In this document: positions 1,256-29,354 of the stretch, one piece after another
Layout of the letters: each line of letters opens with the position of its first letter
Position numbering within the stretch: position 1 is the first letter of the stretch
From: a virus
Taxonomy: Duplodnaviria > Heunggongvirae > Uroviricota > Caudoviricetes
Strand: one strand, 5' to 3'
Virus record (IMG/VR): IMGVR_UViG_2778261177_000009
Span: 1 to 30,130 of that record
DNA length: 30,130 nucleotides
Program-made: the position numbers and the translations under genes
Notes under the pieces: generated by a model
Told to the model about the DNA's origin: nothing
What the model saw: only the letters and a program-made list of their open reading frames with translations
Databases searched by the model: none

Positions 1256-1756
1256 TCACCGGGAAATTGTACCCCGCTTCGTCAGTTCATCGTACTGCCT
1301 TTCGCAGACCCTTCCGGCTTCGGCTGCCCGGTCAGCGTATTCTGCCAGTTTTCGGTTTCGTTCGAGAGATTTTTCGAACACGTCGGTAAGCAAAATTCCG
1401 GTGTCTGCGGCTGACGACCCAGCGCCGACAGTGGCGTTATACTGCCTGAGCTGCTCACGGATGGCAACGAGCTGCTGCTGCAGCCGGCCAGCGCGAGCGG
1501 CAGCATCAAGAGCATCATTGCGCGCCTGGTCGATCCTCTGCTGCGCCTCACGTTCATTGGTTGCTTTCTCCTGTTCATCATGTTGACTGGCTTTCTCATC
1601 TTCTGCTTTGCGGTCAGCCTTCGCCTGCGCATACCCGGCGTCGTACTGTCTGTCACCGTGAATATTCCAGGCTATAACGCCGCCGGCCACCAGAGCAGCA
1701 AGCATCGACACGATAAGCAACTGTTTCCAGTATGCTTTCACGAATGCCGTGATCAT
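1256..1756 (-). CDS. Rz-like i-spanin (inner-membrane spanin)
   Basis: Start taken as the internal Met (MITAFVKAYWKQLLIVSMLAALVAGGVIAW), whose ATG overlaps the endolysin stop as ATGA. N-terminal TM helix then charged coiled-coil periplasmic domain; last gene of the lysis cassette. The 211-aa form in the ORF track is an upstream extension. Confidence 0.55.
   Translation of the reverse strand: MITAFVKAYWKQLLIVSMLAALVAGGVIAWNIHGDRQYDAGYAQAKADRKAEDEKASQHDEQEKATNEREAQQRIDQARNDALDAAARAGRLQQQLVAIREQLRQYNATVGAGSSAADTGILLTDVFEKSLERNRKLAEYADRAAEAGRVCERQYDELTKRGTISR
1282..1518 (-). CDS. Rz1-like o-spanin lipoprotein embedded in Rz (+1 frame)
   Basis: Internal Met begins MMLLMLPLALAGCSSSS (lipobox LAGC) followed by a short Pro-rich peptide (PQTPEFCLP); lies wholly inside the Rz reading frame. 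Confidence 0.45.
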   Translation of the reverse strand: MMLLMLPLALAGCSSSSLPSVSSSGSITPLSALGRQPQTPEFCLPTCSKNLSNETENWQNTLTGQPKPEGSAKGSTMN

Positions 1757-2382
1757 GATGCCAGCGCCTTCTTGGCCGACAGGTAACGCACACGGCGATC
1801 GTCGATGCCATTCTGCCCGCCGTTGATGATCTGCGTGACGCGCATCAGGTCGTCGGTGTACTTCAGGCATCCATATTTCACGAAGTACCACGCCGCGCTC
1901 CGCGCTGCATACTCGTCCTGCGCCAGCAGCTCCGGCTGCTTAACCAGATCCACCTTCAAGCCGTTGCCGCAGTCGCGATAGGTGTTCAGCCCGGTGATCT
2001 GGATAAGCCCGCGCCCGCGGTAAAACCAGCCGTCTGTCGGCCCGTTATTCCCCATGCGTTTGCTGTACACCAGATTGGCAATGGCCCGCTGCCTCTCCAG
2101 TGGCAACGATGGTTCACCCTGCCGGCGCCCGAGGGAATTAGCCTGGCCCTGCGTCAGTCGCCCGGCACGGACGAAACCAGCCAGCCCCGCCACGCTGTAA
2201 TTGAAGCTCTCAACGAGCTGGGTAAAGCCAGTGCTTTCATGCCCGGCCTGGGCAATAAACATCGCCTGATCCAGCGGCTTGATGATGCCAAACTCTTTCA
2301 TGGCCGCCACAATGTGCGGATGCCAGCGCGTGGCCAGCGACAAGTTAACGCCGGCAGCTTTCTGAAACTCGTTAATGTCCAT
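1753..2382 (-). CDS. endolysin, glycoside hydrolase family 19 (chitinase-like) lysozyme
   Basis: GAGG RBS; motifs FIAQAGHESTGF ... LVYSKRMGNNGPTDGWFYRGRGLIQITG characteristic of GH19 phage endolysins; sits between holin-like genes and Rz. Confidence 0.75.
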   Translation of the reverse strand: MDINEFQKAAGVNLSLATRWHPHIVAAMKEFGIIKPLDQAMFIAQAGHESTGFTQLVESFNYSVAGLAGFVRAGRLTQGQANSLGRRQGEPSLPLERQRAIANLVYSKRMGNNGPTDGWFYRGRGLIQITGLNTYRDCGNGLKVDLVKQPELLAQDEYAARSAAWYFVKYGCLKYTDDLMRVTQIINGGQNGIDDRRVRYLSAKKALAS

Positions 2383-2677
2383 GTTGCGACCTCGATATCT
2401 TGAAGATTTGCACGACGTTGCCGCGTGTCTTCAGCACCGCGGCGAACATCACAGCATTGATAACGACCTCAGAAAGATCTGCGGTCATAGGGAAGTGGTA
2501 CAGGTATGAGTACGCGGTGCGCAGCGGGATGCTGGCCGCCGCCACGATGAGGAAATAGGCTATCCACCCGCCCCAGCGGCGATGGCGCGATCCGTTGCGC
2601 TGGAAGAACATCACCCGCAGCGCTATACCGCCGCAGATGATGGAATTAGCGATAAGCAGCAGATCATGGCCTGTCAT
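2372..2677 (-). CDS. small membrane protein, holin/antiholin-like
   Basis: GGAGG RBS; about 100 aa with 2-3 predicted TM helices; overlaps both neighbours within the lysis cassette. Confidence 0.5.
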   Translation of the reverse strand: MTGHDLLLIANSIICGGIALRVMFFQRNGSRHRRWGGWIAYFLIVAAASIPLRTAYSYLYHFPMTADLSEVVINAVMFAAVLKTRGNVVQIFKISRSQHGH

Positions 2678-3077
2678 CGTCTTTTCCTCCCGGGATTAAA
2701 TCGCGCGGATTGTCAGAGCGGTGATACAGCCATATCCCAACCCGCACCGCGACAATTGCGGCAACGAACGCGCCGGCGGAGTAGACAATGCCCCGCTCGA
2801 ACGAGTCCTGTGTGATGGTGGGGATCATGCTGGCAACGCCGATAAGGATTGATGCTGTGGGTTTGTAGAAGAGAAGACCGCAGAGAAAGCTGAGTAGCGC
2901 CAGGAGAACGCGGCGCTTGAACGGATACTCAACTGCAGAGGTAACAAAAATTACCGCCCCGGCCAGCGATCCCAGCGCCACTTCAGGAGGTACGCCGGCG
3001 ATGACTGCTGCCAGCGCACCATAGCTAAGCCCCTGATTTATTGTATCAGCGGTTAGCGATGCAGACATGATGACCAC
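2664..3077 (-). CDS. holin-like membrane protein (possible dual start GTG 3077 / ATG 3068)
   Basis: Several hydrophobic helices and a charged C-terminal tail (GGKDDDRP); first gene of the lysis cassette. A strong AAGGAGG RBS lies just upstream but is in frame with a 12-codon upstream ORF, so the exact start is uncertain. Confidence 0.5.
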   Translation of the reverse strand: MVIMSASLTADTINQGLSYGALAAVIAGVPPEVALGSLAGAVIFVTSAVEYPFKRRVLLALLSFLCGLLFYKPTASILIGVASMIPTITQDSFERGIVYSAGAFVAAIVAVRVGIWLYHRSDNPRDLIPGGKDDDRP

Positions 3078-3133
3078 CGTTTACTATGCATGATGAACCT
3101 CCTTAGTTTGGTCAGTCCATCATACACAATAAA

Positions 3134-3186: not shown

Positions 3187-3459
3187 CTATGACAATAAAA
3201 GAATTGCCTCTTCAACAACCTGCTTTCTTTTTAATAACATCGTTTCAGTAGATGCTTCATTTTCTGCATCAATATACTTGTCTTGAAGTTCAAGTATTTT
3301 TAAATCTATAGCGTCGTCACATTCAATAACTCCACTTGCTATGATTTTGTCACGTTGATTTACTTGCGCTGTAGTGATATCGCTTCCGCTCATGTTTCCA
3401 TAATAATCAACGATAGCCTTGAATAACACATCTGCCTGTTTTGCATCTGAACCAGTCAT
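3187..3459 (-). CDS. small acidic protein translationally coupled to the tailspike
   Basis: Its ATG overlaps the tailspike stop (TAATG); 90 aa, acidic, no TM helix; lies in the same AT-rich block as the tailspike C-terminal domain. Confidence 0.5.
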   Translation of the reverse strand: MTGSDAKQADVLFKAIVDYYGNMSGSDITTAQVNQRDKIIASGVIECDDAIDLKILELQDKYIDAENEASTETMLLKRKQVVEEAILLLS

Positions 3460-5870
3460 TAATTATACCCCGCTATTCTGATTTCTTTCATATAATTGTT
3501 ATTTACGTTATGTGTCATTTTAAATAACACATACCAACTATATGCAAGTCCATGTGTTTCATCTGCCATTTTTACAAAGCCAGGGGCAGTTGACCCCATT
3601 TGAGTTACTATTGTAGTGTTTTCAACTCCAGATGTAGCAACTTTTGAATTAGAAAACGCCGTGTAAGGATCTGTATTTATATCTCCGTCAAACGATATCA
3701 TCTGAATTAAACTTGCTTCAACAGTAGATCCTGCTGCTGCTGCATTCTGATCAGGTGAAATGTTAAATCTTATAAAAGCTCTTATATCATCAATAGCTTT
3801 TATATCATCTGGAACCCTCCACATGAAGTAAAGATCAACACCGTTTTTTGTTGATACTAATTTGTTAAATGTCCATGATAATGTGTCTGCTTTGTCGTTC
3901 AGAATTATTTCTGATGGTCTTAAATAAAAATATCTTCTGAACCAACCAAGAACAGTATTATTGGTTAAAAACCATGATTGCAGGTTTGTGCCACCAAAGC
4001 CTATAGATTTAGGGTTTTTATTTATTTTGTTTCCGCTTGCGTTATTATTTGCGAAATACAACTCATTTATGTATGCCCCCTTACCATGAAATGCATCAAT
4101 AACAGAGTATTTTGCACGAAGAGCGACAACATTATCAGCTGATGCAGAAATGTTTCTTATAATATTCGGCATGTTAGCATCATTATATGAATCATCAGTA
4201 TAGTAGGTGGCTACACCATTAATGCAGTCACCAACATCTATATTCTCAACAAGACAACCTTTTGCATTATTTAATAGAACCATCTCCGAAGATGCTGTAC
4301 GACCTAATTTTGCAGCTCGTAAATCTTTAAACCCACAGTTTTCTACAAAGTTTGTAGCAGCTCCTGAACCATTAATAGTTCCGGCAGTCATAGGCTTAAG
4401 TAGATCACAATCTTCAATCCAGCAATCTGTTGAGTTTGCAATAAAACCAAATGCATAATAAGTGCGAACAAGATCCGCCTTTTCAACGGTAGCACCTTTT
4501 GCAATTACATCATAACAAGATGGAGAAGAGGAAGAACTATCGTTACCAAAGTTAAACAATTGAGTCCAACCATCACCAACCACATCGAAAAATCTTATAT
4601 GCTGTGCATTAACACAATTAAATGCATAGCCTCCCCAATAGCTGGAATCAGTAAACACTGCAGACATGCGCAAGCCATAAACTTTACATTTCTCACACTG
4701 AACATAAGACTGATTATCTCTCAGGTAAGATTTCAGTGGTAACTCTGCCATCGTAGAATCAGCAACGGAAGACGGGTAATTACCGGAATTGTATGCCGCT
4801 TTTGCTTTTTTATAGTTCCATTCTCTGCCACTCCCAAAAACGAAACCACCACGACCATACATTGACAATGGGTTTATCTGTTTTACCGTAGCCCCATATC
4901 CTATAATTACAACATTGCTGGGTACGAACTGAATAAAATCAATCCAATAGGTTTTACCTGGTGTGAAATATGCTACACCGCCACCTAAAGATCGTAACCA
5001 CTCAAACATATTAAACATTTTTTTAGAATTAGCATGAGCGTCTGGCTGGGAATCAGTAATAACGCCCCATGCCTCAGGACAAGTCCACTTACCAATAAGT
5101 TGATTTAAAGATCCAGACCCTGGCATGCCCAGCAAAGACATACCAAGACCATCTTCATGAGATGCTAACTTTATTGCGAGATCTGCTGTATCTGTCATCG
5201 AAAAAACAGGTATTGGCTTTCCGTTGCTATCCCATCCTAACAACGAGTTTTTCCGAACAGATACCGGGCTTAGTTGGTCAACAGTGCTTTCTGGAACCCG
5301 TAGAGTTCTCGCAAAATTACTGTCAATCTTCTGATCAAGAATGGCATCACCAGCTTTCCAGGCATTGGTGTTGTCAACGATCTGCCCATCAACATAATTC
5401 TTCGTGGCTGCGTCCTGCGCCTGTGACGGGTCACGAAGGTTACGAATGCGGTTGTTGAGTGCGTCATAATAGTTCGCGATGAACGACGGCTTGCGCAGCG
5501 CCAGGCGTAGAAAGCTGAAACACTGCTGGATAAGCATGGTCAGCTTGTCGAACGCATCCTCATGGACCTCTGCGAAGAACTTCCCCTGGTTACGGAGGTC
5601 AGTCTCTTGGGTAACTGGGAGGTCGCGCGAGATAGAAATCTGCCATCCGTTGGCCAGCGGTGACATCAGCACGACATTCCCGCCAGAATAGGTACCCGCC
5701 CCGGTAACGGAGTAATCGGTATCCAGAGTCAGCACCGTAATATTTTCGTTAAGGTCAGCGACCTGGACGGTGAGATCTGACTTCTTGAAGATGCGGAACG
5801 TGTACGGGAAAGATGTGGTAACGCCGTTCCCTGTGTAGTCGTTATGGTCGACTTCGGTTGAGACCGTCAT
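3459..5870 (-). CDS. tailspike protein (conserved N-terminal virion-attachment domain plus beta-helix receptor-binding/depolymerase domain)
   Basis: GGAG RBS; 803 aa; N-terminus MTVSTEVDHNDYTGNGVTTSFPYTF recalled as the conserved tailspike anchor of epsilon15/phiV10-type phages; C-terminal two thirds are AT-rich with Gly/Asn/Ser-rich beta-helix-like repeats. Confidence 0.8.
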   Translation of the reverse strand: MTVSTEVDHNDYTGNGVTTSFPYTFRIFKKSDLTVQVADLNENITVLTLDTDYSVTGAGTYSGGNVVLMSPLANGWQISISRDLPVTQETDLRNQGKFFAEVHEDAFDKLTMLIQQCFSFLRLALRKPSFIANYYDALNNRIRNLRDPSQAQDAATKNYVDGQIVDNTNAWKAGDAILDQKIDSNFARTLRVPESTVDQLSPVSVRKNSLLGWDSNGKPIPVFSMTDTADLAIKLASHEDGLGMSLLGMPGSGSLNQLIGKWTCPEAWGVITDSQPDAHANSKKMFNMFEWLRSLGGGVAYFTPGKTYWIDFIQFVPSNVVIIGYGATVKQINPLSMYGRGGFVFGSGREWNYKKAKAAYNSGNYPSSVADSTMAELPLKSYLRDNQSYVQCEKCKVYGLRMSAVFTDSSYWGGYAFNCVNAQHIRFFDVVGDGWTQLFNFGNDSSSSSPSCYDVIAKGATVEKADLVRTYYAFGFIANSTDCWIEDCDLLKPMTAGTINGSGAATNFVENCGFKDLRAAKLGRTASSEMVLLNNAKGCLVENIDVGDCINGVATYYTDDSYNDANMPNIIRNISASADNVVALRAKYSVIDAFHGKGAYINELYFANNNASGNKINKNPKSIGFGGTNLQSWFLTNNTVLGWFRRYFYLRPSEIILNDKADTLSWTFNKLVSTKNGVDLYFMWRVPDDIKAIDDIRAFIRFNISPDQNAAAAGSTVEASLIQMISFDGDINTDPYTAFSNSKVATSGVENTTIVTQMGSTAPGFVKMADETHGLAYSWYVLFKMTHNVNNNYMKEIRIAGYN

Positions 5871-7204: not shown

Positions 7205-7292
7205 TTACATCGCACTCCTCTTGTGCCATAGTAATCGGGCACTGGCAAAATCCAGTGCCGGGATTGGTCTCCCGGATTACTAAGTGGCGCAT

Positions 7293-7316
7293 ACCACGCC
7301 AGACGTGGTTTTTTTA
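7293..7316 (+). terminator. intrinsic terminator inside the 5' leader of the antirepressor-like gene
   Basis: Stem ACCACG / CGTGGT with loop CCAGA followed by TTTTTTT; preceded by another stable hairpin (GGCACTGG / CCAGTGCC, 7238..7259). Confidence 0.45.
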
Positions 7317-7473
7317 TGCGTATAGCACAGTCATGCCAGAATTATGGTGGGCTGAATGGGGGTCCGAAAGGACGCCGGTACCACTTAGGCCGGTAAGACC
7401 AACTCCGTTCAGTTCACCACCATCTGATTGGTCTCAGCGGTGGTGATGTAATTCGCTAAGTGGAGACACCATC

Positions 7474-8130
7474 ATGAACGCTCAACTCATCCCCGTATTC
7501 AACGGCACTATATCTAACGAAACAGCCCTACTTTGTAATGCCCGCGATCTGCACGCTTTTTTAGGTGTTAAAAAGGTGTTTGCAGCATGGATTACAAATC
7601 GCATTTCAGAATACGAATTCATTGAAAATCAAGACTATATTTTGCTTTCCAATTTGGGAAAGCAAACATCTGGTAGAGGCGGCCACAACCGCAAAGAGTA
7701 CCACCTCACCCTCGATACAGCCAAAGAGCTGGCAATGGTCGAGCGTAACGAAAAAGGTCGCCAGGTGCGACGCTACTTCATTGAATGCGAGAAACGTTTA
7801 AGACAACAAGAAACAAAAGTGGAGAACGTCTTGTCAGGCTTCATGCCCGCCATTATGGAGGCGATCAAGCTGGAAGACAAAAAAGAATACAGCGCCCCAC
7901 TGAAGCCCGGCTACCGCAGCCTGATTCACTCGCCGTCTGGTGTTCTCGGCCTGACGGAGAACTCACTGCTGATGAATCTGCTGAACCAGTTACAGGACGA
8001 CGGGCACGACGTATCGGGCGCGGCGGCGGAACTGACCACCATGTTCTGCTACATCGTCGGTGTGAGCAAATGCCTGCGTAATATCCAGACACACGCGGAA
8101 TACATCAACGACAAGGCAGGGTTCTTCTGA
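7474..8130 (+). CDS. phage antirepressor-like protein, AntA-type N-terminal domain plus C-terminal domain paralogous to 6066..6323
   Basis: GGAG RBS; N-terminal region ([33 protein letters not shown] ... [35 protein letters not shown]) matches the AntA/AntB antirepressor domain from recall; C-terminal about 80 aa aligns with the LexA-box gene product. Confidence 0.7.
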
Positions 8131-8259: not shown

Positions 8260-8586
8260 ATGACAAAACTTGGATTCGTGATGAGAGGTCCGGTAAGAAG
8301 CGGAACTCATGCAAAGCGTAGCAAGAGTCGTATTTTTACTGGTAAGGTTGTAGCACGTAAATCAGCTATTGGCTCGTTCAATAGTGAAAATGCGGCATTG
8401 CGCCATATTTTTATCAGCACAAAGCCAAGAGCATCCGCTGATGTGCATACAATGTCTATTCCTATCACAAAGAGTATAAAGCGGATAAAAAAGCTCTCAT
8501 CTGCAGAATCAAAAGAGATATCTTTCCGCCAGCTTAACTCATTAGAAACGCATATGAAGGAAGAGGAATTCGATGTTTTTGAGTGA
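8260..8586 (+). CDS. small basic protein, first gene of a two-gene operon (candidate antitoxin/regulator)
   Basis: GGAG RBS 7 nt upstream; Lys/Arg-rich N-terminal half and acidic C-terminus (EEEFDVFE); overlaps the downstream gene by 14 nt; AT-rich. Confidence 0.45.
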   Translation: MTKLGFVMRGPVRSGTHAKRSKSRIFTGKVVARKSAIGSFNSENAALRHIFISTKPRASADVHTMSIPITKSIKRIKKLSSAESKEISFRQLNSLETHMKEEEFDVFE

Positions 8587-9085
8587 GTATAGCGGGAAGG
8601 TTATACCTACTGGTGAGTTTAAAACTGATGACTTTCTGATTTCGCTAAAAGATGCTTTTAAACAACACTGGCGTCATGGTCATCATCCTGATCTGGGAAA
8701 AGATACTCTTTTTGAAAGACCAGACGAAGTATTAGGTTTCCATCTCAGAAAGGTTCATGTCAATATTGGTGAATATGCATCATATTCATACTCATGTACT
8801 GAACAGTGTTGGGATGAGTGGTCATACGGATTGATTGATGAACAAGGAAATTACAGGCCAAAACCAACCAGTAACGCATATCTCATATATGCAGTCAATG
8901 AAATAAGAGATGCAGCCTTACTAGCTTATTGGGACCCGCCCGCACACACCAAAGCTAACGCAAAAGTTTGGATGGATTCCGTATTGAATTTCACAAAATT
9001 ATTTCATGAACGAACGAATACAGCTCCACTTAGTAGAAATGTTTATCCGTGGGATTATTCGTACAAATCCAAAAAGCCTGCATAG
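8573..9085 (+). CDS. hypothetical protein, weak collinear similarity to YafO-family toxins (candidate toxin or abortive-infection effector)
   Basis: AGGAAGAGGAA RBS inside the upstream gene; by eye three collinear blocks resemble E. coli YafO (GKDTLF vs GRDALY; RKVHVNI vs ERVAHIH; AYLIYA..AALLAY vs AHLVYC..AWLLIA); His-rich motif HWRHGHHPD; AT-rich. Confidence 0.5.
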   Translation: MFLSEYSGKVIPTGEFKTDDFLISLKDAFKQHWRHGHHPDLGKDTLFERPDEVLGFHLRKVHVNIGEYASYSYSCTEQCWDEWSYGLIDEQGNYRPKPTSNAYLIYAVNEIRDAALLAYWDPPAHTKANAKVWMDSVLNFTKLFHERTNTAPLSRNVYPWDYSYKSKKPA

Positions 9086-9166
9086 TAGTTTTTTATGGAC
9101 GAAACAAAAGTCAGTGCTACACTCATTGACGCCACATTGAGGTGGCTTATAGATGGAAATTTCACA

Positions 9167-9328
9167 ATGAAAAAAGCATTTGCTGCACTGTTCGTTTTAT
9201 TGTCTCTGGTAGCTTCAACTCAGGCCTTTGCTGGTCGTTGTCAGCACGACAGCGACACTGCTGCTGACGGCTCCCGCTGCGGTGGGCGTTCTGCGGATTC
9301 CCGCCCGGGCGGCGGTGGCATTCGTTAA
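9167..9328 (+). CDS. possible small secreted Cys-containing peptide
   Basis: Internal Met begins a classic signal peptide MKKAFAALFVLLSLVASTQAFA followed by a 31-aa Gly/Arg/Asp-rich peptide with two Cys; weak RBS and no plus-strand terminator, so coding status is uncertain. Confidence 0.25.
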   Translation: MKKAFAALFVLLSLVASTQAFAGRCQHDSDTAADGSRCGGRSADSRPGGGGIR

Positions 9329-9349
9329 AACAAGGCCGCGAAAGCGGCC
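9323..9349 (-). terminator. rho-independent terminator ending the minus-strand ejection-gene operon
   Basis: Stem GGCCGC / GCGGCC (9334..9349) with loop GAAA; on the minus strand it is followed by TTGTTTTAA. Confidence 0.5.
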
Positions 9350-9350
9350 T

Positions 9351-9362
9351 GTGACATGTCAC
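9351..9362. repeat. 12-bp perfect palindrome GTGACATGTCAC, copy 1
   Basis: Exact 12-mer also at 26569..26580 and 28870..28881; here it abuts the terminator hairpin. Confidence 0.6.
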
Positions 9363-9369
9363 GCTCACG

Positions 9370-9510
9370 TTATGACAAGCCTATGTACCCTGCTACACCA
9401 GATAATATCAAAATAACTGCAACAGCAAATTCGCCATCGTCAATGATACATTTGCGGTTCATAACGCCAAGTGCAACAAGCGCAAACACAACAAGAATAA
9501 AAGCAATCAT
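9370..9510 (-). CDS. unannotated 46-aa two-helix membrane peptide coupled to the upstream ejection gene
   Basis: Hand translation: MIAFILVVFALVALGVMNRKCIIDDGEFAVAVILILSGVAGYIGLS; AAGGATGAG RBS; ATG 9 nt after the TAA stop of the 824-aa gene; followed by the GTGACATGTCAC palindrome and the terminator. Too short for the ORF track. Confidence 0.4.
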   Translation of the reverse strand: MIAFILVVFALVALGVMNRKCIIDDGEFAVAVILILSGVAGYIGLS

Positions 9511-9519
9511 TTCTCATCC

Positions 9520-11994
9520 TTATTGCGGAGTGACATCCTGTGGTCGCCACCAGTATGTCTGGTTAAACTCTTTCTTCGAACGTTGCTCCATTTTACGCAA
9601 ATAACCTGGTGAAAAATACTCCTGCATCTGGTTAAAGATCATGTGATCGAGAGCCGCCTTTAAGTACCAGAGATTCGCACCTGGCATCAGACCTTTCCCC
9701 AGCTTAACCAGATCACCACCAGTCTGCTCATTCTTCCCTTCCACAGCATTTAACGGTATGCCCTGAGCAATCTTCACTACGTCATCAACCAGACCAGCTA
9801 CCGGGCCAAGCATCGACGCCAGCGCGCCGCTTCCGTACCTAGTGTGATCTGACAATAAAAAGTCACCATAAAGGCCAAGGCCACCGCCTTTCAGTAACGC
9901 ACCAAGCCAGAATTTTGCGGAATCATCACCGGTCATATCACGCGGGTTCCTGCCTGATGCCATATCGTTTAGTTGCTGCGACAGCGCGCCAAGGATGGTT
10001 GTGCTGGCAATAAACGTCGCAATGTATGCCGCACGACCACCAGCAGACGGCATACCCATAGCGCGCGACCAGTGACGCATGACAACGGAGATCGGAAACG
10101 ACTTAAACAGAAACACACTGCGGGTTAACTCACCTTTCCATGTTCCGCGCTGGATTCCTGAACCAGTAACCATCTGCTCACGCGCACCAGGAGTGATGAC
10201 CGCCATATCCACTTCTTCGGTCACCGCTCCGAGCAGCTTACGCATCGCTTCAAACTTCACGCGTTCCGGTTCTCCCAAGTGCTCTACAGCAGCATCAGGA
10301 ATACGCATGATGCTCTCCGGCGTAAGCATCGTATCGTTACCCTTTCCCCAGTCCTCCTGTTGCGCCAGTTTCCACACACTCCAGTCTGTATCTGTGATCC
10401 CCTTACTTTTCAGTATGCGGAAATCTGCGTCATCGAGACTGCGAAGATCCGGTGTTCTGGTGACAACTTCGCCCAGGCTACCCATCATGGTGACACCATA
10501 GGCACGCTTATGCGCATCTGACCACGCTGTCAGGCCGCTGGCACGCATTACAGCCGTAGCCGCCCAACGGGACACAGAAGGCCCCATATTGTCCATCGCC
10601 CAGCGGTTAACGCTGCCAAGCAGAGATTCCATTGCCAGACCAGCACGACGGGCCCGCGCCAGTTCTGTGCGGTTCGCCGGATTCATCGCCTCTAACTGAT
10701 TCCTGAATAACTGGTTCATTGGCAGGTTGGTAACCTTCGCAGACAGATACATGGTTCCAAGATCAGAGAACGATGACAGCAACGCGGATCCGAGTCTGCT
10801 GGCAACCAGCCAGTTGCGGATATTGTCAGACCATCGCGCGATGTGCGGATTCGCTACAGGCTGTGTCTTTCCGGAAATAAAGTTGTACAGATTCTCTGTG
10901 TTGTTCGCCAGCCGCTCGACTTTACCGGTTTTACTCGGGTTAGCTGTTGCCGTTTCTGCCTTCACCTGATCAAGAAGAGAGCGGAAAACATGATCGGGGT
11001 TTGGGCCATATGTTTCCACCAGTGCAATATCTTTACTGATACCTTCCAGGTGACCGACCATGATTTCCCATAGAGAGCGATCGCCATAAAGTTGCTGATA
11101 TTGCAGATAGGAATCTGCATCTTTGAAATGTATCTGTCGTGATGCATTACCACGGTTAGCACGTGCGCCGGAAATTCGCATTCCGGTATCAGTAAGCTTA
11201 TTCAGCCCACCAGTAGCGATCGTGTTATAAGCCTCTCCAAGAAATGCAGACAACTCGGCATCGTTCATCAGTTGTCCATCGGCTCGGGTATAATATTTGC
11301 GATCCAGCTTACCTATAACATCGCTAACCCACTTATCCTTTGATACCGCCCCAACCTTTTCCATAGAATGATGTTGAGGTATTCCCCAGTTTTCGAGATA
11401 GCCAATGTCCCCACCAGCATCATTAAACCGGCGGCGCAGCAGCTCTGTAACTTCTCTCCACGCCTTAGCACCTTTTCTTGCTTTAGCATTGCCAGTATTT
11501 TGCCCCCGCATTTCATATACCAGGTCACGTACGCCCGCTTCATCTTCAAACAGACCAAAAAAGCGAGGATCAACTGCTTCGAATGCCTCCTGCAATTGAC
11601 TCAATGCATAATCACGAGTGGCTTTTGTTCTGGATTCAACAGAGAGGAAATTCGATTTACCGTCTGCATTAAAAGCAATAGTACGGTTAAGAGCGCCAAG
11701 TTTCCCATCAGCCCCTTGATAGCTATTGATAAATTTATCCAATCTCTGACGTGCGGCTATAGTGAGAGCCACACGACGTTTCTTTAATGCCGCTTCTCGC
11801 TGTAATTCTTCAGATGCCAATTGTGCTGCACGATACAACCGTTCTGATTCGGACAGTTGTCGCCACGACATCGGGTCATCACGAGCAATGGAGCGCATAT
11901 TTCGATAAATGCGGTCTTCAATGTTCTGTATTTCTCGCGCCGTTAACGTGCGCTGCGCCGCCTGCTGGACCGCTTGTATACATTCCTGTCTCAT
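9520..11994 (-). CDS. large internal virion / DNA-ejection protein
   Basis: 824 aa, last of three consecutive very large minus-strand genes between the head-tail genes and the tailspike; assignment by size and position only. Confidence 0.55.
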   Translation of the reverse strand: MRQECIQAVQQAAQRTLTAREIQNIEDRIYRNMRSIARDDPMSWRQLSESERLYRAAQLASEELQREAALKKRRVALTIAARQRLDKFINSYQGADGKLGALNRTIAFNADGKSNFLSVESRTKATRDYALSQLQEAFEAVDPRFFGLFEDEAGVRDLVYEMRGQNTGNAKARKGAKAWREVTELLRRRFNDAGGDIGYLENWGIPQHHSMEKVGAVSKDKWVSDVIGKLDRKYYTRADGQLMNDAELSAFLGEAYNTIATGGLNKLTDTGMRISGARANRGNASRQIHFKDADSYLQYQQLYGDRSLWEIMVGHLEGISKDIALVETYGPNPDHVFRSLLDQVKAETATANPSKTGKVERLANNTENLYNFISGKTQPVANPHIARWSDNIRNWLVASRLGSALLSSFSDLGTMYLSAKVTNLPMNQLFRNQLEAMNPANRTELARARRAGLAMESLLGSVNRWAMDNMGPSVSRWAATAVMRASGLTAWSDAHKRAYGVTMMGSLGEVVTRTPDLRSLDDADFRILKSKGITDTDWSVWKLAQQEDWGKGNDTMLTPESIMRIPDAAVEHLGEPERVKFEAMRKLLGAVTEEVDMAVITPGAREQMVTGSGIQRGTWKGELTRSVFLFKSFPISVVMRHWSRAMGMPSAGGRAAYIATFIASTTILGALSQQLNDMASGRNPRDMTGDDSAKFWLGALLKGGGLGLYGDFLLSDHTRYGSGALASMLGPVAGLVDDVVKIAQGIPLNAVEGKNEQTGGDLVKLGKGLMPGANLWYLKAALDHMIFNQMQEYFSPGYLRKMEQRSKKEFNQTYWWRPQDVTPQ

Positions 11995-23315: not shown

Positions 23316-23608
23316 TCCTGTTCACTGGCCTCTTTGGCCATCTTCAAATACTGTTCAGGGCAATGCGCCATAACGCGCTGAAACAGTTCCAGCGCCAGAT
23401 TGCGTTGCCCCTCATTAAATGCCATTGCCATAGCGTCCATCGGTGAGATAGCGGAAAACACACGGCCTTTCTCCAGCACCGACCAGACAACGCGACGCCC
23501 CTGTTCACTGCTCATGACAAAGCGAATGTCATCAATTTCACGCTGTGCCATGTCACGTTGCTTACGGGCGTTTTCTTCTTTCAGTTGATCGTCTTCGTAA
23601 TCTGTCAT
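23312..23608 (-). CDS. small head-assembly-associated protein
   Basis: 98 aa; overlaps the portal stop and scaffold start. Confidence 0.45.
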   Translation of the reverse strand: MTDYEDDQLKEENARKQRDMAQREIDDIRFVMSSEQGRRVVWSVLEKGRVFSAISPMDAMAMAFNEGQRNLALELFQRVMAHCPEQYLKMAKEASEQE

Positions 23609-25932: not shown

Positions 25933-26009
25933 GTGGCATTAGCTCAGTCGGACAGAGCAACCGCCTTCTAAGCGGTTGGTCGCAGGTTCGAATCCTGCAT
26001 GCCACGCCA
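25933..26009 (+). tRNA. tRNA-Arg (anticodon UCU), phage-borne
   Basis: Hand-folded cloverleaf: acceptor GTGGCAT/ATGCCAC, D-stem GCTC/GAGC, anticodon stem ACCGC/GCGGT with loop CTTCTAA, T-arm GCAGG-TTCGAAT-CCTGC, discriminator G and encoded CCA. T-arm matches E. coli argU as recalled. Confidence 0.85.
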
Positions 26010-26568: not shown

Positions 26569-26580
26569 GTGACATGTCAC
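26569..26580. repeat. 12-bp perfect palindrome GTGACATGTCAC, copy 2
   Basis: Exact repeat of 9351..9362; sits 4 nt upstream of the terminator hairpin. Confidence 0.6.
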
Positions 26581-28869: not shown

Positions 28870-28881
28870 GTGACATGTCAC
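28870..28881. repeat. 12-bp perfect palindrome GTGACATGTCAC, copy 3
   Basis: Exact repeat; in the gap between the nin-like genes and terS. Confidence 0.6.
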
Positions 28882-29072
28882 ACTATTAATTTCGTTTCAT
28901 GCCAGCCTTTAGTCACCCAGCATTGCGAGTCACCATTACACGGGCATGAATTAACTGGAACTCTCTCGCCGCACTTACCGCAACGTTTTCTGCTGATCGA
29001 TTTTATACGCCCGCGCACACGTGCACCATCCAGATAGGCACATCCGTCCGCAATTAACACATATAGGCCACA

Positions 29073-29354
29073 TCATTTTTCCTCTTTTGGTTTATGAATC
29101 TGAATGGTCATGCCGCTTTGAGTGGTGACTACAACGACAGAACCAGGCTGAAGGCTGTTAAGATTGAATGCTTCGTAAAACGAATCCAAGGCTAGTGCTT
29201 TTTTATTCTTTCGGTTCCACCAACGCCATCCCTTGCTACAGGCTACACTGACAATCCACTGCCCACTCCTGTAAGCCATATAAAACCAGATGAGCAAAAC
29301 CTGAAGGAATGCTATCCAGTCAATAATCGTATATTTCGCGAAGGAGTCCATCAC
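29073..29354 (-). CDS. small membrane protein
   Basis: 93 aa with one strongly hydrophobic helix (IAFLQVLLIWFYMAY); start overlaps the stop of the upstream gene. Confidence 0.45.
   Translation of the reverse strand: MMDSFAKYTIIDWIAFLQVLLIWFYMAYRSGQWIVSVACSKGWRWWNRKNKKALALDSFYEAFNLNSLQPGSVVVVTTQSGMTIQIHKPKEEK

Follow-up and report, generated by a model that had tools for sequence, protein, structure and literature searches.

In phage P22, the superinfection-exclusion gene sieA is located between gene 16 and gene 9 (PMC10883804). SieA has 162-164 amino acids (aa), three transmembrane helices, and a cytoplasmic FxRYPxEAxxFNK motif, and is expressed from its own promoter (PMC10883804). Three SieA types, less than 30% identical, are known; the two tested were indistinguishable in exclusion (PMC10883804). 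Only 22 of 66 P22-like phages carry sieA, and mutations allowing escape from exclusion fall in C-terminal parts of the ejection proteins gp16 and gp20 (PMC10883804). T4 Imm is cited as a blocker of DNA entry (PMC12373910). Our subject is a gene for a much smaller inner-membrane peptide, located at 9370..9510 (- strand, stop codon included) in a 30,130 nucleotide (nt) stretch of viral DNA. This stretch, referred to as the window, is IMG/VR record IMGVR_UViG_2778261177_000009, positions 1 to 30,130. The peptide gene directly follows a gene resembling T7 gene 16. What is new here is that, behind this T7-gp16-like gene, cassettes for different envelope proteins replace one another within a slot that is conserved and has sharp boundaries.

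Integrated beside yfgI in E. coli, the window is a Uetakevirus prophage (epsilon15/phiV10 group) that is 99.4% identical to a prophage of E. coli strain MB31. Its late operon, on the - strand, opens with genes for both terminase subunits (small, then large), and goes on to those for portal, capsid, and tail. Next are the genes for a core protein of the T7 gp14 family, an 837-aa protein whose PHROG matches are of the transglycosylase type, a 600-aa protein, and an 824-aa protein. The last structural gene of the operon (9520..11994, -) encodes the 824-aa internal virion (ejection) protein, which matches PHROG 684 (‘virion structural protein’) over its full length. In tblastn searches, this protein is ~30% identical to gp17 of epsilon15 and to gp17 of BcepC6B. 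Hardies et al. identified both gp17 proteins as homologous to IVP-D (internal virion protein D) of T7, the product of gene 16 (PMC4819975). Hence, the label ‘last ejection gene’, used in an earlier note on this DNA, is fair. Hydrophobic stretches are present in the C-terminal third of the 824-aa protein.

The peptide gene and the 824-aa gene are closely joined. Exactly 9 nt (GGATGAGAA) separate the TAA stop codon of the 824-aa gene (9522-9520) from the peptide ATG (9510). A Shine-Dalgarno-like AAGGA (9521-9517) overlaps the stop codon. The ribosome-binding region TAAGGATGAG (9513..9522, -), read from the sequence, marks the left edge of the cassette slot. The good ribosome-binding site and the 9 nt spacing reported in the earlier note can thus be read directly. 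In almost all loci with a recovered peptide open reading frame (ORF), TAAGGA is kept, with a spacing of 9-10 nt. On the other side, the peptide TAA is followed by 7 nt, then by a perfect palindrome, GTGACATGTCAC (9351-9362), and then by a terminator. A scan of 8900-10300 detected no sigma-70-like promoter upstream of the peptide ATG (9511-10300, -, ~800 nt); the single promoter-like match falls within the peptide ORF. Third-position diversity in the 824-aa gene is lowest in the last 25 codons (0.122 vs 0.16-0.28), a small dip that a ribosome site or recombination could equally explain. We conclude that the peptide gene is the last cistron of the late operon, encoding virion and ejection proteins, and is translationally coupled. 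The coupling to the last ejection gene that had been proposed is therefore borne out, both by the spacing and by the homology of that gene to epsilon15 gp17.

Note that ORF length is uninformative in this region, where 62 ORFs of at least 20 aa overlap the 4 kb around the peptide gene. That the gene is real follows instead from three independent lines of evidence: hydrophobicity and fold, conservation, and selection. The translation of 9370..9510 (-) in the ORF listing is MIAFILVV...YIGLS, 46 aa in total (MIAFILVVFALVALGVMNRKCIIDDGEFAVAVILILSGVAGYIGLS), starting from ATG. Its GRAVY score, 1.78, is the highest of the 99 window ORFs of 40-60 aa; the runner-up scores 1.02. In the AlphaFold2 model, the peptide is a helical hairpin (H2-19 and H25-45) with a mean predicted local distance difference test score of 92. 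Polar residues are found only at the hairpin tip (N18-R19-K20...D24-D25-G26-E27), and helix 2 has the small-residue motif S37-G38-x-A40-G41-Y-x-G44. This is the two-helix membrane peptide with a short charged loop that had been predicted from a hand translation.

For the analysis of selection, 31 distinct nucleotide alleles were drawn from IMG/VR loci, phage records, and assemblies. There are 29, 16, and 42 variable sites at codon positions 1, 2, and 3, respectively. The Nei-Gojobori ratio of non-synonymous to synonymous substitution rates (dN/dS) has a mean of ~0.24 over the 31 alleles, and lies between 0.13 and 0.40 in comparisons with the window copy. Both frame and loop motif persist in copies that are 62-67% identical in DNA, a level of identity at which dS is saturated. 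Across 50 IMG/VR loci, the peptide ORF is intact in 41. The disruptions are early 1-nt deletions at two loci (L051 and L058), an insertion or frameshift at codon 41 in one lineage (four contigs, L046-049), and loss of the stop codon in another (three contigs, L042-044). In L051 and L058, the 824-codon upstream gene is still intact. Hence, either the peptide is dispensable for prophage carriage or the deletions are sequencing errors. Conservation of ORF and ribosome-binding site in related phages, one of the checks put forward in the earlier note, was accordingly found, and the frame-disrupting variation that would speak against the gene is mostly missing. We conclude that this is a genuine protein-coding gene under purifying selection.

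The peptide belongs to a narrow family, restricted to phages of enterobacteria, that is already in databases without an assigned function. Residues 1-46 of 46 match the PHROG 7892 profile (E = 5.5e-33), and the phage copies are 85-100% identical to the peptide across all 46 residues. The phiV10 record describes PhiV10p21 (YP_512275.1) as a ‘putative integral membrane protein; two predicted transmembrane helices’, and the terminator, too, has an annotation there. The gene is also annotated in SPN1S (SPN1S_0020) and related Salmonella phages. In the E. coli prophage 99.4% identical to the window, the Prokaryotic Genome Annotation Pipeline (PGAP) names it WP_000559990.1. Hence, the peptide was ‘unannotated’ in the ORF track available to the earlier note, but not in public records. 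All these entries represent one family, at the same site after the 824-aa gene, with the same palindrome and terminator, and no difference is apparent. Among 5,426 complete E. coli genomes, 54 carry the peptide gene. In a large protein database, clusters with 74% identity or more number 42 and come from E. coli, Salmonella, Citrobacter, and Hafnia. Nearly all have a true length of 46 aa; where 55 aa are given, an upstream start was miscalled. The loop MNRKgIIeDGEF is nearly invariant across the 42 clusters, and the most distant family members keep the core NRKG-I-[DG]..E[FL] together with GVAGYxG. A profile hidden Markov model search of 1.84 billion representative proteins returned only five matches, all from the same narrow family, and no remote link to a characterised family. 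A match to Pfam DUF5367 (13.5 bits vs a cut-off of 25) was dismissed as hydrophobic-segment noise.

The slot is best seen by comparison with phage phiv142-3. Here, the 824-aa gene and the region past the terminator are ~99% identical to the window, and the peptide is replaced. Identity stops exactly at TAAGGA and picks up again at CGTGACATGTCAC. In between, phiv142-3 has an unrelated 57-aa two-helix ORF, 9 nt after the stop codon, and a 98-aa three-helix protein (PHROG 3075). We then took a census of 80 IMG/VR loci in which the C-terminus of the ejection protein is 96-100% identical to the window, sorting them by the distance from stop codon to palindrome. The 46-aa hairpin accounts for the class at ~157 nt (32 loci). 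The 57-aa hairpin and 98-aa protein make up the class at ~488 nt (36 loci, and two more cut by contig ends). Eight loci, at 596 nt, have a small membrane ORF and a lipoprotein (lipobox LVGC, PHROG 3716), and a single locus, at 386 nt, has the lipoprotein by itself. Divergence within the cassette encoding the 98-aa protein is too low for dN/dS. The slot lipoprotein has 126-138 aa and is found, for example, at 3259-3639 of L081 and 3436-3852 of L086, both from IMG/VR. The first small membrane ORF of the 596-nt cassette appears to be split between two frames (41 aa and 43 aa), and may be a frameshifted two-helix hairpin.

Other described phages extend the series. In epsilon15, the slot is occupied by gp18 (64 aa, two hydrophobic helices, PHROG 29212) and, in Tyrion, by gp19 (103 aa, two helices). 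Hence, at least six unrelated cassettes share the slot: the 46-aa hairpin, the 57-aa and 98-aa pair, the membrane ORF with lipoprotein, the lipoprotein alone, epsilon15 gp18, and Tyrion gp19. Every one encodes envelope protein(s), the lipoprotein with its LVGC lipobox included. Each of the Uetakevirus cassettes examined begins at, or beside, the upstream stop codon and ends at GTGACATGTCAC and the terminator. Thus epsilon15 gp18, Tyrion gp19, and the phiv142-3 pair share slot, start, end, and envelope character with the 46-aa peptide, and differ in size and helix number. Comparisons with hhalign gave no homology between the 46-aa family and either epsilon15 gp18 or the 57-aa peptide.

Further away, no membrane ORF was found behind the homologous ejection genes of BcepC6B, VP2, MPK9, YeP6, and vB_EcoM_APEC; in BcepC6B and VP2, a tail-fibre gene comes directly after the ejection gene. 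Conversely, locus L146 has a 45-aa family member, ~45% identical, in another setting. It lies after a Tyrion-gp19-like 92-aa membrane ORF, behind a non-orthologous 1129-aa gene that is a different last internal-virion gene. Taken together, cassette swapping, absence from distant phages, and the L146 context indicate that the peptide is a portable accessory module rather than a fixed partner of the ejection protein. The locus also has most hallmarks of a moron, in the sense of Juhala and Hendrix. There is allelic replacement behind genes that are 96-100% identical, the cassette has its own terminator, and the GC content of the peptide gene is 39%, vs 50.6% for the 824-aa gene, a drop to which hydrophobic codons contribute. 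The hallmark not seen is an own promoter; the intergenic space is 9 nt and the scan found no promoter-like site upstream. We conclude that the peptide gene is one allele of an exchangeable slot, accessory, and outside the conserved virion machinery. That it should be read as an accessory membrane-peptide cassette is, in our judgement, very probable.

The right boundary of the slot consists of the 12-bp palindrome (9351..9362, identical on both strands) and an intrinsic terminator (9327..9350, -), which ends the late operon. The terminator has an AGGCCGC/GCGGCCT stem, a TTTC loop, and a TGTTTT tail, and its RNA folds with -19.7 kcal/mol (z = -2.0). The palindrome search and terminator scan therefore agree with the earlier note, which had placed both elements after the ORF. 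The terminator is annotated in the records of phiV10 and epsilon15. The order GTGACATGTCAC, then GGCCGC-N4-GCGGCC and a T tract, is found behind every cassette type (phiV10, SPN1S, epsilon15, Tyrion, and phiv142-3). It is also present in the diverged loci L052 and L053, and absent from the more distant L145 and L146. Note that the palindrome is kept although the ejection proteins of epsilon15 and phiV10 are only ~30% identical.

The palindrome is not confined to the slot. The window has three exact copies, and one with a single mismatch (23545-23556), where 0.04 are expected, and no other 12-mer palindrome of the window is recurrent. One exact copy (26569-26580) is beside a hairpin after the large terminase gene and, on the + strand, precedes that hairpin and a T tract. 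Another (28870-28881) is separated by ~40 nt from a downstream hairpin with a T tract, which shortly precedes the small terminase gene. Hence, on the appropriate strand, all three exact copies come upstream of terminator-like hairpins and lie at module borders. The palindrome may be a protein-binding site, or it may be a recombination anchor. Neither the palindrome nor operators are mentioned in the ZX5 paper. Just upstream of the palindrome copy and hairpin in front of the small terminase gene is a short Cys-rich ORF, MMWPICVNCGRMCLSGWCTCARAYKIDQQKTLR (28990-29075, -); speculatively, it may encode a late regulator of the zinc-finger type.

What might the peptide do? We tentatively favour an accessory inner-membrane factor that interferes with entry of phage DNA, as superinfection-exclusion proteins of the P22 SieA and T4 Imm type do; this is possible, though its chances are somewhat short of even. 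The peptide would sit in the inner membrane, in infected cells or in lysogens. It would interfere there with ejection proteins that related phages, on arrival, insert into the membrane and, as a result, the DNA of these phages would be kept out. Expression timing, target, and exclusion activity are all things that we infer. The case for exclusion has three parts. First, the position of the slot parallels that of sieA. Second, every cassette, even the lipoprotein, encodes an envelope protein. Third, turnover of unrelated alleles at one locus typifies conflict genes. Superinfection exclusion was one of three roles suggested in the earlier note, beside holin-like and toxic peptides. Of the three, genomic context favours an accessory role of the exclusion type.

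Several observations weigh against exclusion. The peptide has 46 aa and two helices, and is without either the motif or a detectable promoter, in all of which it differs from P22 SieA. On inspection, the SieA motif is absent from the peptide, whose only family match is PHROG 7892; no direct alignment with SieA was made. A prophage can exclude only if the gene is expressed in the lysogen, but the intergenic space is too short to hold a promoter and none was detected upstream. With no promoter space, no promoter in the scan, and only a weak synonymous dip, late lytic expression is all that the sequence supports. This keeps alive the alternatives of lysis timing, a virion or chaperone role, and a toxin. 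PADLOC gave no match for any cassette protein, and the peptide has no Pfam match above threshold. Finally, the same ejection protein is paired with unrelated cassettes, which argues against a tight, specific fit. Comparable tolerance has been shown by P22 SieA types A and B (PMC10883804).

Among the alternatives, the peptide could be a lysis-timing factor, that is, a small holin, antiholin, or depolarising peptide, made late and tuning permeabilisation of the inner membrane. The gene is apparently expressed as the last of the late operon, and the small two-helix hairpin has a glycine/small-residue motif of a kind known from oligomerising membrane peptides. Also, the alternate 98-aa protein has a sub-threshold, LrgA-like match (E = 0.09). 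The T7 holin gene 17.5 is at the end of the structural block, and class II holins or pinholins, such as S68 of phage 21, are small, late proteins with two transmembrane helices. However, those holins have a charged, usually basic, cytoplasmic tail at the C-terminus and an endolysin neighbour, and the peptide has neither. It ends in ...AGYIGLS, and E27 is its last charged residue. A complete lysis cassette, with two holin-type genes, a glycoside hydrolase family 19 endolysin, and a spanin, is located elsewhere (~1270-3080, -), at least ~6.3 kb from the peptide gene and past the tailspike gene. Furthermore, the slot can carry a lipoprotein alone, the peptide gene is missing from related phages, and frameshifted alleles occur. 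A part in lysis timing is thus unlikely, and the holin-like role suggested in the earlier note is disfavoured. Separately, in the MB31 copy of the prophage, PGAP calls the DUF2514 (Rz-like spanin) gene, at window positions ~1274-1756 (-), a pseudogene with an internal stop; the lysis module there may be defective.

Alternatively, the peptide might act together with the ejection protein, either as a virion-carried component of the inner-membrane channel or as a chaperone or ‘immunity’ peptide that keeps newly made, pore-forming ejection protein out of the membrane of the producing cell. Translational coupling to a T7-gp16-like gene, at a conserved spacing of 9 nt, would suit such a partnership. 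So would the hydrophobic C-terminal third of the 824-aa protein, since the inner membrane is where the two would come together. The exchangeability of the slot points the other way: unrelated cassettes are found behind ejection genes that are 96-100% identical, and the peptide family is also found behind the non-orthologous 1129-aa gene. Similarly, the homologous ejection genes of BcepC6B, VP2, MPK9, and YeP6 have no such partner, and peptide frameshifts occur alongside intact ejection genes. We therefore regard a dedicated ejection partner as an improbable explanation.

A role in cell-surface conversion is decidedly unlikely. Here, the peptide would inhibit a host enzyme of envelope biosynthesis, in the manner of the epsilon15 gp21 alpha-polymerase inhibitor, Pseudomonas D3 Iap, or the O-antigen-altering ‘Gnarl’ proteins (40-90 aa). 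Seroconversion is a trait of Uetakeviruses, phiV10 having Oac, and gp21 of epsilon15 (66 aa) is also a two-helix hairpin. Lipopolysaccharide can be altered by small, stand-alone phage proteins (PMC12373910). Like the peptide, epsilon15 gp21 and D3 Iap are very small and hydrophobic; they differ in being serotype-specific, tied to conversion genes, and non-homologous. Indeed, hhalign gave a probability of 0.06% for homology to gp21. Peptides at least 74% identical occur across unrelated O-antigens (E. coli O157:H7 and O146:H21, Salmonella Typhimurium and Heidelberg, Citrobacter, and Hafnia), whereas targets of the Wzy type are serotype-specific. The conversion genes, moreover, are past the tailspike gene and do not adjoin the peptide gene.

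The region beyond the terminator bears on a fourth possibility. On the - strand, the 824-aa gene is followed by the peptide gene and terminator, then by an AntA/B module, inverted and with C4/isrK RNA, and then by the tailspike gene. Thus, between ejection genes and tailspike, a P1/P7-type immI-like module, on the opposite strand, converges on the peptide gene. On the + strand, at 7226-7424, there are Rfam matches to c4-a1b1 (39.9 bits, below the gathering score of 46.7), isrK (67.7 bits), and C4 antisense RNA (61.2 bits). Directly downstream is an AntA/AntB antirepressor gene (7474..8130, +). A 108-aa ORF, the presumed antitoxin (8260..8586, +), overlaps the gene for a 170-aa YafO-family type II toxin, so named by PGAP (8573..9085, +). 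Last comes a small ORF (9167..9328, +; longer ORF 9095..9328), with signal peptide MKKAFAALFVLLSLVASTQAFA and a Gly/Arg/Asp-rich tail of 31 residues, which converges on the same terminator. It is hypothetical in RefSeq and a ‘putative transmembrane anchored protein’ in phage TL-2011b. The tailspike gene (3459..5870, -) is between the immI-like module and the lysis cassette. Far from these genes, a tRNA-Arg gene (anticodon TCT; 25933-26009, +) is found in the gap that separates terminase from portal genes, and is not on the strand of the late operon.

Given this arrangement, the peptide could be a type-I-toxin-like or abortive-infection peptide, with an mRNA countered by antisense RNA from the convergent operon. 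It is small and very hydrophobic; the + strand operon, with its C4/isrK RNA, antirepressor, YafO toxin pair, and small secreted peptide, runs toward its gene; and the hairpin has no T tail on the + strand, so that antisense read-through is conceivable. Set against this, the gene has no promoter of its own and is coupled to a structural gene. Its product is a two-helix hairpin, not the usual single helix. No Rfam antisense family covers the peptide gene, and PADLOC is again negative. A toxin is very unlikely, and for the toxic peptide of the earlier note we found no positive evidence. Least credible of all is a functionless chance ORF, which the many short ORFs of the region and the frameshifts in a few relatives might suggest, and which is effectively refuted by the selection analysis (dN/dS ~0.24 and a frame retained at 62% nucleotide identity), with conserved Shine-Dalgarno sequence and spacing, and outlier hydrophobicity, adding to the case.

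Returning to exclusion, the consequences depend on which explanation holds. If the cassettes are exclusion factors, they are compact, testable probes of how podovirus ejection proteins cross the inner membrane, and a 46-residue peptide is trivially synthesised or expressed. Exclusion would also account for some of the resistance that lysogens show to phages of the phiV10 and SPN1S type, which serve in detection of E. coli O157 and biocontrol of Salmonella. Should the cassettes prove to be lysis or virion factors, the finding would be routine. A bolder version, which we think rather unlikely, would have a hypervariable ‘envelope-cassette’ locus in Uetakevirus, with the 46-aa hairpin as a minimal entry blocker of T7-gp16-like channels and the smallest superinfection-exclusion protein known. 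In that version, GTGACATGTCAC would be functional, either controlling whether transcription runs past the terminator to reach the tailspike and lysis genes, or serving as an anchor for exchange.

Comparison with known systems puts the peptide among small phage-encoded proteins of the inner membrane, which include the DNA-entry blockers T4 Imm (83 aa) and HK97 gp15, the latter a moron within the tail gene block. Both are non-homologous to the peptide. They also differ in expression: Imm is made early, gp15 from the prophage, and the peptide gene is only coupled to the late operon. The likeness to P22 SieA is one of context. In both cases, an accessory gene for an inner-membrane protein, one of several sequence types (less than 30% identical for SieA, unrelated in the slot), is found between the last ejection gene and the immI/tailspike region.

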